The notes under the pieces were generated by a model. It saw nothing but the letters and a program-made list of their open reading frames with translations. It was not told the origin of the DNA and ran no database searches. Position numbers and translations under genes: made by a program. Below, piece after piece: positions 2,209-55,684 of a DNA stretch of 64,000 bases. Source of the DNA: Enoplolaimus lenunculus. Lineage: Eukaryota. Position 1 is the first letter of the stretch; every line of letters begins with the position of its first letter. Location of the stretch: assembly GCA_030248215.1 (NCBI GenBank), contig JASANG010000295.1, positions 496,001-560,000 on the forward strand, read 5' to 3'.

Positions 2209-2992
2209 TTAAAAATTAAAAATTTGTTTCCGTTTCTCACGATCGACCTCCGCGTACTGCCACAATTTCGACGCGTGCGGATTCCATTCGAGCGCAACGC
2301 GCATTTTGTCTTCTTCTTTCGCTTCACGCCATAAATATTGTACAAATATGCGATTTTTAAAATTCCACCGCGGTGACTCGGTAACCGGAGCAATTACAGT
2401 AACGATCCGATGAAATTTAGGGCACGATTTCCAAAAACTATAATATCGACTAACTTTAAAAACGTTCGCTAGTGTCACTTCAGATTTAGCGTCTTTTTGC
2501 ATCCGCGCTGATATTGGTTTACCGCGTGCCATTACCAGTTGAACTTTATGAAACGTTTTCAAGTCTTCGCTATAGTAGTATTTGGTAGGACGTCCCGTAG
2601 GTCGCCACAAATCTTTGGCTTCAGCTAAAATTTCGGCAATTTTCACCTTATCGCCGTCGACAACAAAACAAAAGTTTTCCGTCACTAAACTTGGCGTTTC
2701 TTCAGTGATATAAGTGTCCGGACAACTGACAGCGCTCAATATCGCTTCTTCGCTATTCACAGCGTGCGTTGTTGACGTGTAGACTGGCATGTTCCGGTAA
2801 AACGTTTTAGGTTCGCCGTTGTTTGTATCTGAGGTTGATGGGATATCGTTATCCGTTACTGATAACCGGTCATCGGTTTCCGTTGAGCATAGACCCGAGT
2901 CACAGGTTGGAAACGCATCAAAGTCGAGAACGCTTTCACTTGGAGATGACATTATGCTCGACAATGAGTTGCCGTGTGCGTCTTCGAGTGGA
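2209..2992 (-). CDS. Uncharacterised protein exon: acidic Ser/Thr-rich N-terminus plus a globular domain (NFCFVVDG..WRPTGRPTKYYYSEDL..RYYSFWKSCPKFHRIV), recalled as resembling a nematode DUF7747-type domain (unverified)
   Basis: Part of a 302-codon open frame (2209-3117) with protein-like composition; TTTTCAG acceptor at 2993-2999; in-frame ATG at 2952 (also 3048/3045). Confidence 0.65.
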
Positions 2993-3271: not shown

Positions 3272-3730
3272 CAGGGTGCAGCCGGAAGTGAAAAATGCCG
3301 GTGCCGGAGCCGGTGCCGGAGGTCGTCGAAACTTGCCGGAGCGAGAGCCGAAGCCGGAGCCGGAGGTGAGACGAAATTAGGTAGTAAAAATAATGGTTAA
3401 TTAGTTAATTTTAGCCAATATTTGCAATGAGACGGAGCAGGAGGTGAGGCGAAATTAGGTAGTAAAAATGGTTAATTAGTTAATTTTTGCCAATATCTGC
3501 AATATGGTGTTAAGTTGTTTGGTTTTACGCTAATTTCCTGCGAAAGTTAGGAAATTCTCTAATGAAAATTGTGACAAAAGCAAAACGATACGCGCTAAAC
3601 AGATAAATTTTGCAAAATGATGCAAAATTTTACTACCGAAATGTCCGAAACCTCCGACAAAAGTTCTACCGGAGTCGTAGCCGAACGCGGATTTTCTGCT
3701 GGAGGGGGGCTGATCTCCGGTTGTATCCTG
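3272..3730. mobile_element. hAT-like MITE
   Basis: Terminal inverted repeats CAGGGTGCAGCCGGA / TCCGGTTGTATCCTG; degenerate 8-bp flanks atagagtg / atagaaag; internal gccgga repeats. Related termini near 22035, 33630-33680, 44445 and 57005. Confidence 0.65.
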
Positions 3731-13037: not shown

Positions 13038-13838
13038 CTGAAAAATTAAACCAATATTTTAGATTTTATAACGTAAAATTGCTAGCGCCTATCATTGGCA
13101 GGCTTCGTTTAAAAATTGTAAATTTCAAAACACAAAAACAACTTTATCCCTGCGGACATACTGAATCCGATCCTACTTCATCTGACATACAGAAGCTGAA
13201 CAGTACGTGAATATTCCTCCTGCTTTAAGTGTCGACTTCTTGTGTTTTGGCGATTTTAAACGACTCGCAGTATATTTCGATTCAAGGATCAGGGTATCTT
13301 AACGCACCACATGTCAGATGGAGTCCCCTGCTAAGGTTTCTTACAAAGGTGCCGAAACGTATCCAGAAACAATGGGTACATGTGTGGGGAGCAATATGTA
13401 ATGGAGGTATGAATCTTGCGAACGATTTTCCGCAATCGCATCGTGGAATGCATTTGTTGCCTTCTAGGGAGTAAGAGGCGACAGCCGTGGCACTGTTTGA
13501 TTTAAATATATGCACGTCTATGACTGTCGGGACTTTTGACTTCACCTAAAACTTAAACGCTCCTAGGGTTGAGCTATACTTTACTAAGCCAAGCGTGGCG
13601 GTTCGGTAATTTTTTATAAAAGTTCTACAGCGGCGTGCGGCAAAAATTTTCTCGTGTCGAGCGCCGGCGTCCGGCGGCGTGCATGCGTGGCAGTGTCCAG
13701 CAGTGCACGGCGAGTATAGCGCAACTGTAACATCTGGCAGGTTATGCGCCTGAAATAAAATATTTGCTACGTTCCCGTTGAGGGGACTAATCTTCTATCC
13801 ATATCCACCCAAATTACAATTACGAGGGCGAGCCATAC

Positions 13839-14114
13839 CTGACCGAAGGCAAATCGGCGACCCAAAAATTGGTGTCAATTTGTTGAGCAGCGAGAACAAG
13901 CTTTTCTTCCATTTGTCGGCGTCGTTTCAATAATGTGAGCAAATCAACGCCTTGGAATTTTCGACCGAAATAATGAATCTTTTCAATGTATTGAATGCCG
14001 ACCAAATCAATACACATCGTTGTCACAGCGAGACCAACACCCAAATACAAAAGCATCACAACAAGATATTGAGTTTGAGAAGGCACTAAATCGCCAAAGC
14101 CGACAGTGGTGAGT
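13839..14114 (-). CDS. K2P/TWK exon: second selectivity filter (LTTVGFGDLVP), M4 and proximal C-terminus (TTMCIDLVGIQYIEKIHYFGRKF)
   Basis: GFG filter and a motif typical of nematode TWK channels; ttttttcag acceptor at 14115; AG|gtatgg donor; phase 2 in / 2 out. Confidence 0.93.
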
Positions 14115-15230
14115 CTGAAAAAATACTGGGAACAAACAACAAGATATTGAGTTTGAGAAGGCACTAAATCGCCAAAGCCGACAGTGGTGAGTCTGAAAAA
14201 ATACTGGGAACAAACAACAAGATATTGAGTTTGAGAAGGCACTAAATCGCCAAAGCCGACAGTGGTGAGTCTGCAAAAATACTGGGAACAAACAACAAGA
14301 TATTGAGTTTGAGAAGGCACTAAATCGCCAAAGCCGACAGTGGTGAGTCTGAAAAAATACTGGGAACAAACAACAAGATATTGAGTTTGAGAAGGCACTA
14401 AATCGCCAAAGCCGACAGTGGTGAGTCTGCAAAAATACTGGGAACAAACAACAAGATATTGAGTTTGAGAAGGCACTAAATCGCCAAAGCCGACAGTGGT
14501 GAGTCTGCAAAAATACTGGGAACAAACAACAAGATATTGAGTTTGAGAAGGCACTAAATCGCCAAAGCCGACAGTGGTGAGTCTGCAAAAATACTGGGAA
14601 CAAACAACAAGATATTGAGTTTGAGAAGGCACTAAATCGCCAAAGCCGACAGTGGTGAGTCTGAAAAAATACTGGGAACAAACAACAAGATATTGAGTTT
14701 GAGAAGGCACTAAATCGCCAAAGCCGACAGTGGTGAGTCTGCAAAAATACTGGGAACAAACAACAAGATATTGAGTTTGAGAAGGCACTAAATCGCCAAA
14801 GCCGACAGTGGTGAGTCTGCAAAAATACTGGGAACAAACAACAAGATATTGAGTTTGAGAAGGCACTAAATCGCCAAAGCCGACAGTGGTGAGTCTGCAA
14901 AAATACTGGGAACAAACAACAAGATATTGAGTTTGAGAAGGCACTAAATCGCCAAAGCCGACAGTGGTGAGTCTGCAAAAATACTGGGAACAAACAACAA
15001 GATATTGAGTTTGAGAAGGCACTAAATCGCCAAAGCCGACAGTGGTGAGTCTGAAAAAATACTGGGAACAAACAACAAGATATTGAGTTTGAGAAGGCAC
15101 TAAATCGCCAAAGCCGACAGTGGTGAGTCTGCAAAAATACTGGGAACAAACAACAAGATATTGAGTTTGAGAAGGCACTAAATCGCCAAAGCCGACAGTG
15201 GTGAGTCTGCAAAAATACTGGAAACAAACA
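14058..15230 (-). repeat. Tandem array of 15 x 78 bp; each unit is 21 nt of intron 3' end (acceptor) plus 57 nt of exon encoding the P2 filter
   Basis: gagtctg recurs every 78 nt from 14111 to 15203; units differ essentially at one base (TTTCAG x5, TTGCAG x10 on the minus strand). Confidence 0.97.
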
Positions 15231-15925
15231 TTTAAGTTGCCATGTTATCAGGAAAATTTTTCAATTATTACTCTCTGAATGTGTAAACTAACTCGCATTC
15301 AAGCTTAACCTAATCTGCAGTAGTGATTTAACTTTCGAGATTAACTAAACATACTGATAGACTGTGCTTCGCATTATTTGAAATCTTACATATTTCTTGT
15401 ATAATTTGAACTTAATGAAATCTAAAAGGCGTATAATTTCTGAGCACCACTCGTAACTTAAAATAAAATAAGTTTAGCTTAAACTAACGTTAAACTTAAA
15501 AATATGTTAGTTTATGTTAAACTCAAAATTCTAGTTCAGTTAGTCTGTCCAGCCATTTATGTTTTACTTAATCTAATATTCAAGTTTAGTTAAGCTATTA
15601 TTTAAGTTTAAATTTTTTAAGAGTACGTATACATTACCATTTTTCGGATACAGTATCCTGAGTGCAATACCGCGCTCTGTGCATGAAACAACACAGAAAG
15701 CTTATATCTAACGGTGATCGTGAGCTTCGTTCGTCTTAGGGTCTCTAAATCAAATCCTATCTAATTTTAACAGCGTAATTAAAAATTAGAATCGAAATGT
15801 CTGCAACTATTAACATATGTGTTAATATCAGCTATCTATTTAAGACCAATTAAAATCAACAAAATATGATTGGATTTGAAGTTGCAAGAACCACTCGCAG
15901 CTGCAAAATACGCGATTCGACTTAC

Positions 15926-16428
15926 GAAATGAAACAAAAATAAAACGCTTCAATGTATTCCCAGCCTTCCAACGCTGAAAACAGTACGCCACCAAGCGCT
16001 GTATACGCTATCAGTATGCTAAACACCATCATCACAGGGACTTGTTTCGAATCAAGCCCTGCAAATTCCGATTCTTCATGGTTCTCATCATTCGCGTGGT
16101 CCACTTTGCCACCTTCAACGTCTCCTGTCACTTCGCCTGCTGGTTTGGTCACAGTAGTTGTTGTTGAACCTTCGTTTTCAATTACAACTGTTTGTTCAAC
16201 TTTACTTGGTACTGTTGCTGTATTATCATCCAGTTGAGTTGAACTCAACGTATCGTTGGCTCCAGTAATGTTGTTATTGTTGTTGTTGTTGTTGCTACTT
16301 GATTTAGGAGCAGTCTTTGAGCTTCGACGAAATAGCCGGGACGCGACGCTACCACGACTGGCGGTCAGATATTTTGACAAGCTCGGTAATGGTCCGAAAC
16401 GTGCAACAAATCGCGATCGAACATAATT
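15926..16428 (-). CDS. K2P/TWK exon: long M2-M3 loop with poly-Asn, M3 and pore helix 2 (EGWEYIEAFYFCFIS)
   Basis: aattttag acceptor, TC|gtaagt donor, phase 0 in / 2 out; canonical EGW...FYFCFIS motif. Confidence 0.92.
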
Positions 16429-16655: not shown

Positions 16656-16853
16656 AGTAGTTACTGATAACAAAATTGATGCATACTAAAACTGGGGCGC
16701 GAACACCATTTGCATTCTGTTATAACATAATCATCCTCAATAAACTCCGATAAAGTAGTTACTGATAACAAAATTGATGCATACTAAAACTGGGGCGCGA
16801 ACACCATTTGCATTCTGTTATAACATAATCATCCTCAATAAACTCCGATAAAG
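16656..16853. repeat. Perfect 98-bp tandem duplication in an intron
   Basis: agtagttactgataac...ctccgataa starts at 16656 and again at 16754. Confidence 0.9.
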
Positions 16854-17238: not shown

Positions 17239-17396
17239 CGCTGCTAATTTGTATTTTTCGTACAACAGGATTGTGTACTCGGACAAAAATTTGCCAACGT
17301 CGCCAATAGTTAAAATCGCTAACGGTGTTCCAAGAAGTGCGAAGAAAAAACACAACAGACGGCCGTGCATTGTTACTGGCACAACGTTTCCGTAAC
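17239..17396 (-). CDS. K2P/TWK exon: GYGNVVP end of filter 1 and M2 (GRLLCFFFALLGTPLAILTIGDVGKFLSE)
   Basis: tatttcag acceptor, GCG|gtaggt donor, phase 1 in / 0 out. Confidence 0.93.
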
Positions 17397-17588
17397 CTGA
17401 AATATAATTTAAAAATTATTCTCTGGTCAAGAACTTAAATTCGTTTCAATTCGACGAGCGGTACCACAACGAACTGTATTGTGGTTACTGTTGGTTTTTG
17501 GAACCAACGAACTGTATTGTGGTTACTGTTGGTTTTTGGAACCACACGGTCTGCACGACACCTGTTCGAAGTTTTGTATAAAGTAAAG

Positions 17589-17661: not shown

Positions 17662-18220
17662 ATTACAGCAACTTCTTATACCGGTAAATGTGTACATGTG
17701 TAGCAATCTTTTCTTTTTGCTTCACACACTTTACCGTACACATATGCCGACACTGATAATTGGTATAAGTTTTGAAACAGTTCGTAAAAAAACTTCATCA
17801 CCTGAGTTTGAATTCAGATTTTAAGCATAAACCGTCATTATCATGACTTAAAACTGATCCAAAAGATAAATTCATTTAATGAAAAACTTTGGTGATTTTC
17901 CAATAATTTATGTTTATTTTACTGATAACAAATAACAATATTTATTATTTGCTTTGAAACGTGAGCAACCTTTTGGATGAAATTCAGAATCTGCGTATAA
18001 TAACACTTGGCCAATAACAACACTGTTGCTCAATGCACATAAAGTTGAGTCCTGAATGCACATAAAGTTGAGTCCTGCTTGTTCCGGGTCAAATTGTAAT
18101 AAAAGCTAAACAATGGAAGCCAAATTTGAGTAATGTTCATAGATTTCCTGTACTTTCAAGTGAGATATACGTGTAGAATTGGCATTTAGAGAATTAAGGC
18201 ATGGCAAAAGTGGCAGGTAG

Positions 18221-18605: not shown

Positions 18606-19230
18606 CGACAGTAGTCGCTGTCGAGAATAAGAATAATACCGACACATCAAAGCCATCATCAAAGGCTGCCGCTGCCCAATGAAAATCGTTGGCTATTCGC
18701 GTGCGATACTCGCTTGCGTTTCGGCCAGCGATTGTAATCAAATCGTTTGCTCGCATTAAATCGACTCCCGTCGCTTTAATGCGAGCGAACGCACGTGTAA
18801 ACTCGCGTAAAACTGTGTCGCTTTTGGCGTAAAACACGTTTGAGCTCCGAGCGACACGTTTTACGTCGAGCAGTGACTCGAGTATCGAGTCATACTCAAG
18901 TGCTAGTTCAGCGATCAACTCGCGCCTCCGTTTTGATTGGGATCGCATTTCGGTGGCGTGAAATATTGCCGACGTTATCAGGATATACGACCAGAAGCCG
19001 GTTAAAATTAATAAATGAATTCGGGCACGGCCCACACAAGATTTAAATCGGCGAAGTAAAGATTGTGAATTTTGGTGCTGTTGTTGCTCTATTTCAGCGA
19101 CTACTTCTGCAAAATCTGGCAGCTGATTTTGACCGGGAGGTGAGACAACAGGTACTGGTGGATAAATTGTTGTTGCTGTTGCGTCAGTTGTAACAACGTT
19201 GCCGTCTGCCAGTGGTTTCGAATTAACCAT
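18606..19230 (-). CDS. K2P/TWK alternative first coding exon B: N-terminus, M1 (IHLLILTGFWSYILITSAIFHATE), cap, pore helix 1 (SVLFLFSTATTVG)
   Basis: 625 nt open from ATG 19230; G|gtatgt donor in phase 1 at the filter glycine, completing TVG-YG with exon 17396. Confidence 0.8.
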
Positions 19231-34783: not shown

Positions 34784-35525
34784 CGATTGTTGTCATCGCA
34801 GTCGCTGAGAAAAAAATCGCCGAAGGAATCGACCAAACCGGCGAAGTCGCCACTGCAGCTGCAAACTCAGACGCTTGAGTTAAATTTGAAGCGGTCGCCG
34901 CTATAAACAACGCCTTCTGTTGCAGCGAGTCGCTTTGTTGCTTTTCTGTTCCGGATCTGTGTTGGGTTGAATGCAGTGACGACAATAGCGACCCGATTGG
35001 CGACTGCTGTTGCGTTGCTGATTGCAATACTTTTATACTATCAAACGTCACAAAACACTGTGATTGAGCACGATAAAGTGTACTAGTTAGTTGCTGAAGA
35101 TCACGAGCACTACGAGATAGAAATTGTTGCTTATGAGTATCAGAGCGAAAAGTAGACGAGAAAACTCTAACTCGCTTAGATAAACTGTCTGAACTAGCTA
35201 CCGAGCTGTACCACCATAAGTGCTCGTGGGGGGTAACTTGTCGGGATTGCCTCCTGCCTACAAGCGATAGTCGCTTCTGATGAGATGAAATTGCCAACGT
35301 CTGTTGCGAAATGGATCGTGATTGTCGTAGCGAGTGTTGCGTAGGTAAAGTTGTCCATAGTTGCGCAACAAGTTGTTCGCGTAATTGAGCAATTTCCAGC
35401 AACGATGCGTTGCGTGTTCGCCACTCGTGCGGCGATTCGGCGACGTAAAACATCAGCGCCCCAAGCACTGCGTACAAGAACGACGCTCCAACAAGACCGA
35501 CGTGCGGAAGGACGAGTTTCAGGTA
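34784..35525 (-). CDS. K2P/TWK exon A: M1 (YLKLVLPHVGLVGASFLYAVLGALMFYVAE), very long cap loop, pore helix 1 (WSIPSAIFFSATAMTTIG)
   Basis: catttcag acceptor, G|gtaagt donor, 742 nt, phase 0 in / 1 out; LPHVGL is typical of the nematode TWK M1. Confidence 0.92.
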
Positions 35526-46106: not shown

Positions 46107-48428
46107 CTGAAAAGTAAAAAATACCAAAAAATATTTGTGCAAAGATAAATAAATTGCTTCAACAGAAACCTTGAAAATCAAGTTAATTTTTCCTAAAGCC
46201 GGCGTTTGCAGAAAATGATCCGATTTTGAAAATTTGTAATAAGATATCATCATCCACACTCTAGCGACTGTTTCTGGGCAGTTGCTAGCTGCAGCGAAAA
46301 AATAATTGGAAAATTGAAATTATCAGAATTCTTTGAAATCTTAACTAAAAATGAATTATAGTGATAAAGTATGTGCGTTAGGGCGGCGCTATACTTGTAG
46401 TCGCACGTGAGTAATTCGCGTACGATACCACGCCGTGACGGATGGTGACAGATGGCACGGAACGTGGTCAATAGTATAGCGCTACGCTAACTCGGCCAAC
46501 TTCTACAACATTGAGCAACGTAACAGTCCAACCTAAAACCGATAAAAACAGAAACAAAACCAATTTTAAATGTATCAATACGTCCTCAGAGTACGTTAAT
46601 CCTGGCTGAGGCCCCCTACAAAAATTTTGGATTCCCTGACAAATGTTTTAACACCGCTTCTGGGTTATCTAAAATAACAGAATGCAACTAGAAAATTTGT
46701 TAGTTCACAGCTGGCATATTGGGCTGGCTACTCGGGTTCACGCTACAAGTAACGGGTTTGCGCAAATCGATAACGGAAAATAAATATCAATAGTATTTTT
46801 ACATTTGAGAAATTTTAAATTTTAAAAACATTACACACTGTGATCACAAACCTTTGTTATGTGCCGAATTTTGTGATGCATACGGTATTATTTAAAATGC
46901 TTGTAATCATGATAATATTTATACAAATAATACAAAAAATTTTCTTAACTAATACAGTTATAGATAAAGGAAATTCAGACACTTTTGAAGCTAATTTCTC
47001 GTTGCAAAGAATTTTCGAAACTCGAGTTTGAAATAAGCGTCGCCAATGTCTACATACGGGGCACGGCACACGATAAAATGGATAACGCATTACTTCAAGC
47101 GCAATCATACCATTTAGCTGATGTATGACTATAGGCTTCTCATATCATTGAACTAGAGAAACGCGGAATGTTTTTGCTTAAGTCAAAACGTTGAGATAGT
47201 TAACACAATACTGAAAACCCCGGAATTGCAGCATGGCAACCACATTTAGCCGGAATGGAAATCGTAACATAAAGTTTGCAGGGATTTCCGCCGGAATCAA
47301 AATTCCGATGGAACACGTTATATGAAATGCTTTTTGGATCAAACCAGTTCCGAGTTTCGACATCAGTATGTTTGCTGCGCACAATTTGAAGCGTTACTGA
47401 GGGTCGAATTTAAAATGCGTAGCTTTTGCAGTTCACTTGTTTAGGACCTACTACCAACCGTGGATGATCAGCTTTTTAGACAAGAGTATGCAACTGAATA
47501 CATTTTTTGTAGAAAAAAGTGCCCACCGCGCGTTGCGTTTTTGTCCGACCTCGCTCATATTGCAGGCACCAAAAACACTCACTGTTTGAGGTAAATCAGG
47601 CTTCAAAGGTTATACCAGCAAACATATTAGTACACGCGAATGTTCAAAAAATATTTGACACCAAAGACTCCATAGTTGCACCCTATTATCACAACAAAGG
47701 TGCGTTATAGTTGCACCCTATTATCACAATACAGGTGTGTTAGATCATCTGTGTACAAGCGTTCGATAAAACACAAATTTCACTGTGAAGAATATGCCAG
47801 AAAATGTCAAATTTAACTTTTGTTTTCACATTTCAACGAAGCATTGAACCGATAAAATAAACGCTTTGCCTAAATTTTCCCTGTCAGGTTTATGTCGAAT
47901 AAGTTCTATTTAACCCAAATGCACTCCAGTGACTATAGTGACACTTCGTGGTTAAATTTTCCAACAAATTTAGTGACATTTAAAATTCTAAAATTATTCA
48001 GCTTTATAACATTTCAAAACAATATTATCGTGCCAGGCGCTGGCAAATGCATACGAAGCCCACTCAGGCCATAACCCTCCCACGAACAGGGATTGAAACC
48101 GGAATTTAGTATTACGATTTAGTGCTAAACTGGGTTTGGCTTATGTCGCTCACACGTTACCATACGTGCACTCCGCATATCCATCGTCCCCCTATACTGT
48201 TTTACAAAGGCTGGCTATACTGTTATTGCGTAACTGTGTGCGGAAATTTTATCTCTAAATATAAATGTCCGCATAGAGTTTATTGCATTGATTGACATTT
48301 CATATTACTATTTGCGCATTACATTAATATTAAATATAGAATTGCGTGAACTGTCGGACTTTGTCGTTACAGTGTAAAAAATGTCGCCAGAAAGCTCTAA
48401 ATAACATAATTAATTTACTGTGCTTACT

Positions 48429-54900: not shown

Positions 54901-55490
54901 TCATAGCTACCAGTGAATAGTTCCGTGCAGTACAGTAAATATGCTGAGCTAATGTTGGGATCAGCCTGGTACTACCTGCTTATACGAAGGTGTTGTACAA
55001 GTATATATTTTTAAACTAGCGAATACATCATCGTTCTATGCTGCCAAATATCTACTTCACCTACGCCACTAGTTGTCGACCTTCTGCTCAGGCTCCGATA
55101 CATGTCCCATTCAAATGCACCTTGCTATTCACTATAGAGTTTAATACACAATATGCATCCTATCCTAGTAAAACTTAAAAGTACGCAGAAACTTAACGAG
55201 GCGTGGCAGCAGTTGTGGCCCACCAACGCTAGGGTTTCACTGTATACAGCATTCTTTGAACACCATATTTTAACTAATATATATTCAAAGTTCGCACCCT
55301 AATATATCGGTAAAGTAAACACCAACTGTGATAAGTACATGCACTGAAACGAGTTTTTGAGAAACTTTCTCTATACAGTTGCATACGGCTCGTTCAAGCG
55401 ACTAAAGGCGCAATGTTGTAAAAGAAACATAGGTTTTTGTAGACTCCCCCACATTTTAAAGTTAGGCGTAGGCTTAACCAAACGCTAAAG

Positions 55491-55684
55491 CCTACACTTT
55501 AAACATAAGTTTAGGCCCAGGCATTTAAAACAATTATAAATGTTGGATCGTTTTCCAGCGAAGTATTCCAGTTTCGAAAACCTGGAAGCCTACACCTTAA
55601 ACATAAGTTTAGGCCCAGGCATTTAAAACAATTATAAATGTTGGATCGTTTTCCAGCGAAGTATTCCAGTTTCGAAAACCTGGA
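55491..55684. repeat. Near-perfect 98-bp tandem duplication
   Basis: cctacac..aaacataagtttaggcccagg...cctgga starts at 55491 and at 55589. Confidence 0.9.

Follow-up and report, generated by a model that had tools for sequence, protein, structure and literature searches.

A tandem array across an intron/exon boundary in a nematode twk-2-type K2P channel gene: a candidate acceptor-side mirage minisatellite

In the nematode Enoplolaimus lenunculus, the end of an intron and the start of the following exon, which encodes the second selectivity filter of a predicted potassium channel, are repeated in tandem. Which of the repeated splice acceptors would be used, and what would the choice mean for the channel? 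We addressed these questions in a stretch of 64,000 nucleotides (assembly GCA_030248215.1, contig JASANG010000295.1, positions 496,001 to 560,000 of the forward strand), referred to here as the window, whose own coordinates are used throughout.

Anatomy of the array and its presence in sequencing runs

Tandem Repeats Finder, applied to the window, reported an array at 14058-15230 with a period of 78, 15.0 copies and 99% matches (Table 1). Each unit comprises 21 terminal intron bases and 57 initial exon bases, or 24 intron bases when a TGT microhomology at the unit joint, present in the native intron as well as in the native exon, is counted. The 15 acceptors lie on the minus strand at a spacing of 78, with first exon bases at 15206, 15128 and onwards to 14114, and the upstream donor falls directly after 15926 (TTCATTTC/GTAAGT; slashes mark splice boundaries). 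Read in the channel frame, all units give LTTVGFGDLVPSQTQYLVVCSQYF[C/F]R and are stop-free, and the array is open in a second frame as well. The original prediction of 15 in-frame acceptors 78 nt apart, reachable from the donor at 15926 and separated by stop-free units, was thus confirmed by Tandem Repeats Finder and by the sequence itself.

Only two columns vary among the 15 units, -4 and -16. Column -4 is G in 10 units and T in 5, in the order GGTGGGGTGGGTGTT, and at column -16 a T is private to the first unit. The splice signal, a CAG with its T tract, is kept in 15/15 units. Three features of mirage minisatellites are present in the array: tandem units that straddle an intron/exon boundary, splice signals preserved in the copies, and concerted evolution that spares an edge unit, visible in the two variable columns and the private -16 base. 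The native upstream intron precedes the first acceptor only (15206) and the full native exon follows the last only. Between them, the internal acceptors read TTTTCAG in four cases (15050, 14660, 14348 and 14192) and TTTGCAG in nine.

Every unit also holds an extra AG that precedes the main acceptor by 11 bases (TTTCCAG/T in the first unit, TTCCCAG/T in the others), the use of which would shift the frame. The private -16 base is position -5 of this extra AG, which is weaker in the repeat copies.

Table 1. The array, its acceptors and the host gene in window coordinates
Feature	Position	Strand	Basis
Array, 15 x 78-bp units	14058..15230	-	Tandem Repeats Finder, sequence, repeat loop contigs
First acceptor, TTTTGCAG/A, putative exon start 15206; G at -4, T at -16	15207..15230	-	sequence
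13 internal acceptors, exon starts 15128 ... 14192	14193..15135	-	sequence
Last acceptor, TTTTCAG/A	14115..14121	-	sequence
Exon with M1, cap and pore helix 1	34784..35525	-	homologue matches
Exon with filter 1 (GYG) and M2	17239..17396	-	tblastn, Pfam
Exon upstream of array: M2-M3 linker, M3, pore helix 2; end FYFCFIS, phase 2	15926..16428	-	tblastn, Pfam
Intron, unique part; 719 bases to first acceptor, 1811 to last	15231..15925	-	sequence
Canonical 276-base exon: filter 2 (TTVGFGD), SF2-M4 loop, M4, start of C-terminal tail	13839..14114	-	homologue matches
Donor GTATGG of canonical exon	13838	-	inferred
TWK-2-type C-terminal domain; 5' boundary approximate	2209..2931	-	homologue matches

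Three public runs cover the window (X1, X2 and X3, from two samples, S1 and S2, of one study), and we examined them as short-word contigs, which are independent of the assembly path. A 108-base contig (78 + 30, one complete unit turn) occurs in 3/3 runs with zero differences to the array and includes the novel exon-to-intron junction. The depth of this loop contig is 325.9, 110.3 and 176.3 in X1, X2 and X3, compared with flanks at about 24, 8-13 and 16-35. Ratios of loop to neighbour depth are 7.5-13.5 in X1, 8.2-13.5 in X2 and 5.0-11.2 in X3, whereas the window allele would predict 10.8-12.6; on the cleanest single-copy baselines of sample S1 the ratio is about 13 and 12-13.5. In two of the three runs (X2 and X3) the contig of the left flank breaks off at 14087, after 30 bases of array sequence, which is the behaviour expected at a repeat branch. 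No contig of the three runs spans the array and the contigs leave some parts uncovered, so the copy number of 15 rests on the assembly and on rough depth; the uncovered parts were not counted as evidence.

The flanks in S2 differ from the window at 16/1088 and 12/1437 bases (~1%), yet the loop is still present; the array has thus been retained on haplotypes that have diverged. Loop-to-flank depth is about 12-13.5 in S1 and 5.0-5.4 in S2 (11.2 on the other flank); depth is not a copy number, and the S2 array possibly has fewer units. It is extremely unlikely that the assembler expanded a single unit into an array. The units are 99% identical, no contig bridges them and the assembly may derive from S1, all of which would suit such an error. 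However, the novel junction is found in the contigs of all runs, including those of the diverged second sample, the loop exceeds flank depth by a factor of 5 to 13.5, against an expected 10.8-12.6 for the window allele, and the two unit variants are interspersed. An assembly artefact, the outcome named beforehand as fatal to the idea, was looked for and not found: contigs built from the reads of both samples contain the repeat. We conclude that the repeat array is real and occurs in two samples of one study.

The host gene and the predicted product of each acceptor

A search with the last unit plus M4 gave 132 protein matches, of which 120 are listed; those with names are K2P channels of nematodes, with identities up to 79%. 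Homologue matches place the exons of the gene between 35525 and about 2200, a conserved C-terminal domain among them. With tblastn, Pfam (Ion_trans_2) and a tree we recognised four membrane helices and two pore loops in the proper order, as well as the TWK-2 C-terminal domain. On these comparisons the host of the array is identified as a nematode twk-2-type K2P channel gene. In the C. elegans protein P0038 the filter-1 glycine is at position 181, and G181 is the filter-1 glycine named for TWK-2a (PMC9049526). The tree held 30 rows chosen from the 120 listed homologues plus the window's core, and placed the window gene and C. elegans TWK-2 in an 18-row group with support of 100/100. The window gene lies outside a 13-row Rhabditida-type subgroup (99/96), on a long branch, and its exact place within the 18-row group is unsure; its position points to a nematode that probably does not belong to the Rhabditida. 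It thus has its K2P clade and C-terminal domain in common with C. elegans TWK-2; unlike TWK-2 and the other homologues found, it carries the repeat.

No Pfam family matched the TWK-2-type C-terminal domain (minus strand), and the C. elegans isoform P0047 apparently has two copies of it. A further exon-like frame lies in the 17-kb intron at 18606-19230 on the minus strand, with an ATG at 19230 and an M1-like hydrophobic stretch. Its end resembles a pore helix (FLFSTATTVG/GTATGT) and has the phase of the main M1-P1 exon (35525-34784). This frame could be an alternative 5' exon to the GYG exon (17396), swapping M1, cap and pore helix 1. It matched one of the 120 listed homologues at E 5e-5; there was no Pfam match, and a database search returned no match at E <=1 among 4235 longer candidates.

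The distance from filter 2 to the M4 motif MC[IV]DL is a useful measure of each acceptor's product. It is 31 residues in 101 of the 120 homologues listed out of 132, and the remainder of that set has spacings of 30 (one), 33 (two), 50 (two) or more (six), or no recognisable filter (eight). In the six with larger spacings the pattern probably caught the first filter only, and the two with a spacing of 50 were rejected as real inserts, as they look like intron read-through in predicted proteins. In the array gene the 31-residue spacing results from the last acceptor (14114) only, which bears out the earlier claim that this acceptor alone leads to a canonical subunit. The companion claim for the other acceptors, that each adds 26 residues per copy behind a correctly placed filter, also holds in the sequence; the predicted addition reaches 364 residues, and the exon grows from 276 bases to as many as 1368. 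A doubled TT[VI]GFGD occurs in 0/120 homologues (120 listed of 132; predicted proteins of distant species), and within that set the alternative products are not conserved in relatives. The two top-scoring homologues, P0001 and P0002, were dismissed as parallels: what they double is an M4 segment, not the filter, and this is unrelated to the array.

The 14 extra units would bring 23 cysteines, and their best 19-residue hydropathy is 1.03 vs 2.36 for M4. Since they contain no segment of membrane strength, topology would be kept and the extracellular SF2-M4 loop would become longer. This loop is reported to be central to C-type gating, and its shortening blunts gating in TREK-1 (PMC7608817). A single-sequence AlphaFold2 model of three repeats with the last unit and M4 (mean pLDDT 50.9) gave a fold with two strands per repeat, which we discarded as unreliable because the known M4 helix came out partly as strands.

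Choice among the acceptors

We consider the array to be probably a tolerated passenger, removed for the most part during splicing owing to a likely preference for the last acceptor. With long introns on either side (719-1811 and about 800 bases), the exon is probably recognised by exon definition, and human data on long introns indicate that exon-defined exons favour the sites nearest across the exon (PMC9225289). The last acceptor would be favoured by its 276-base exon, by the whole native exon that follows it and by its consensus TTTTCAG. TTTCAG is the reported 3' splice consensus of C. elegans (PMC4484395), and T is found at -4 in the last acceptor and in 7/7 other acceptors of the gene, which were inferred by hand and partly chosen for their acceptor-like look, whereas the first acceptor has G. 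Preference for the last acceptor is weakened by the finding that human 3' sites overall favour the upstream copy, a tendency that long introns merely reduce (PMC9225289).

Local features gave little separation between the candidates. The four internal TTTTCAG acceptors equal the last in sequence and upstream context, the nearest being 78 bases away, and a CTCAA branch-like motif is found at -34 of every repeat acceptor. Predicted accessibility is about equal for the internal TTTTCAG acceptors and the last (0.72 vs 0.74) and lowest for the first (0.52); the last acceptor did not stand out in RNA folding. A bias of the T units towards the 3' end of the array was not significant (P 0.082), and selection for T at the last acceptor found no support (P 0.33 for the last acceptor and 0.095 for the last two). 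Some minor use of the nearest copies is to be expected, with messages in frame and 26 residues per copy added to the SF2-M4 loop.

A larger and unregulated leak, with more than 1/10 of messages arising from upstream acceptors and most likely from the TTTTCAG copies near the end, is rather unlikely but by no means negligible. The in-frame messages would escape nonsense decay, which cannot hide slips when all acceptors are in frame, and would encode a long, cysteine-rich SF2-M4 loop with poor folding or gating. The allele would then be hypomorphic but tolerated, and the severity of its effect may track copy number. The likeness of internal and last acceptors in local sequence and accessibility argues for such a ladder, and the donor arrays of IFI6 and CBS are reported to leak to their nearest copies (PMC1557585). 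The protein would plausibly suffer, given that SF2-M4 governs C-type gating and that a change in its length blunts TREK-1 gating (PMC7608817), and given the cysteine-rich units devoid of a membrane-strength segment. By contrast, mirages and CBS 844ins68 are described as yielding normal mRNA, and the array persists on diverged haplotypes. The latter is weak proof of normal splicing, because loss of twk-2 in C. elegans causes mild movement defects only (PMC9049526), a point in favour of the ladder, and a poorly spliced allele could for the same reason also persist. Several K2P nulls are likewise described as mild (PMC2115697 and PMC11513965). If the ladder were true and the longer subunits conducted or interfered, a polymorphism in repeat length would adjust a K2P channel by way of its gating loop, for which we found no case in the openly accessible literature.

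Scanning to the first suitable AG past the native branch point would instead select 15206, placing 364 additional residues in most of the protein and creating a near-null allele. We regard this as quite improbable. The native upstream intron, with its CTGAT and CTTAA motifs, adjoins the first acceptor only; by the classical proximity rule an upstream 3' site is preferred (PMC9225289); and most introns of C. elegans are short (PMC4484395), which would fit intron definition. Yet this acceptor has G where the seven hand-inferred acceptors have T, shows the lowest predicted accessibility and requires the 1368-base exon, and the homologous exons in the rest of the gene appear intact. With fifteen near-identical acceptors in two sequence variants, the locus would provide a natural test of scanning against exon definition in a long-intron nematode.

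The original prediction also raised the prospect of a splicing-tunable length dial, for which no positive evidence emerged. That acceptor choice or allele length is regulated or selected, setting the length of the SF2-M4 loop and thereby tuning gating, is very unlikely indeed. The case for such a dial would draw on the in-frame status of every acceptor, on the position of the insert at a known gating hub (PMC7608817), on tissue-specific shifts to proximal 3' sites in C. elegans, where the sites are <=18 bases apart (PMC4484395), and on the hint from depth of a copy-number difference between the two samples. However, chance alone would account for the frame about once in three. Among hypothetical duplications of 30-150 bases across the array's acceptor, 926/2782 with <=30 intron bases and 1299/8697 with <=100 intron bases are both in frame and stop-free. 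The open frame is thus weak, hardly meaningful evidence and selection is unneeded for it; we ruled out selection for the open frame as needless, as about one third of the hypothetical duplications with <=30 intron bases pass. Moreover, the units differ at two columns only, with no sign of age or of protein-level divergence, and none of the 120 homologues listed out of 132 has such an insert or a doubled filter. A related proposal treats the copy-variable array as a heritable setting for a neuronal leak channel: upstream acceptors would be used at appreciable frequency, their messages would evade nonsense decay, and subunits with one or two additional filter-bearing units of 26 residues in SF2-M4 would arrive at the membrane with altered gating or would suppress wild-type TWK-2/TWK-40 partners according to allele length; this too is a distant prospect.

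Precedents and origin

By its sequence features the array is classed as an acceptor-side mirage minisatellite in a nematode, a described class in a new host. Amphioxus mirages are reported as tandem copies of an intron end and an exon start, with units of 10-160 bp, unstable length, edge units outside homogenisation and normal splicing undisturbed; they occur in the genes for Adh3, the globins BflGb6 and BflGb9, troponin C and PGBD5 (PMC3087553, PMC3902484). The nematode array resembles them in its head-to-tail joining of an intron 3' end to an exon 5' part, in a unit of 78 bp that falls within their size range, in its unhomogenised edge unit and in the retention of the AG signals, and like them it may vary in length. 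It differs from the mirages described there in its nematode host, in having 15 units at 99% identity, in that all acceptors are in frame and stop-free and in that a channel selectivity filter makes up the exonic portion of the unit. For the amphioxus mirages normal splicing was established by RT-PCR, whereas for the nematode array it is a prediction. We found no nematode mirage in the openly accessible literature, coverage of which is incomplete; effects of repeats on human gene structure in general are treated in PMC2812944.

In human CBS 844ins68 a 3' splice site is duplicated and splicing occurs at the distal copy (PMC2630376, PMC1802585). As in the nematode, it is an acceptor-side intron/exon junction that is duplicated, and distal use there restores the normal message. 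There are two sites in CBS 844ins68 against fifteen here, and the G runs between the sites that are reported to promote distal choice have no counterpart in the nematode unit, which is without G runs. Human donor-side arrays are also minisatellites with an end unit across an exon boundary, but they lie on the donor side and are subject to mammalian splicing. In F7 (intron 7), LMNB2 and PDGF the authentic site alone is described as used, while in IFI6 (6-16) and CBS intron 13 the two nearest further copies are used too (PMC1557585). The mirages and CBS 844ins68 together favour the third option of the original prediction, a duplication absorbed into the intron. If the array is indeed a passenger spliced mostly at the last acceptor, mirages would extend to nematodes and the case would otherwise be ordinary. 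New in comparison with the known cases would be the nematode host, and slips that are in frame and aimed at a K2P gating loop.

The array may have originated in a single 78-bp head-to-tail duplication at the TGT microhomology, followed by expansion and homogenisation through slippage or unequal exchange. The edge unit would have escaped homogenisation, hence its private -16 base.

Two-copy tandem duplications in the window, of 23-98 bp and 90-100% identity by Tandem Repeats Finder, include an exact intronic duplication of 98 bp at 16656-16853. This is present in X1 and X2, where its loop contig has twice the flank depth, and absent from X3, where a contig joins across. Small tandem duplications are thus polymorphic in the host species. 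Others are at 17467-17544, 18032-18077, 55488-55684, 3355-3503 and 47672-47742, none of them seen across an identifiable exon boundary. As small duplications are frequent in the window and one is absent from S2, a duplication spanning a boundary needs no special cause. The array's own intron also contains, at 15465-15620, a very high-copy dispersed repeat whose contigs together reach a depth of tens of thousands and have many loose ends, probably a small transposon-like element. A lower-copy dispersed repeat lies near 13560-13730.
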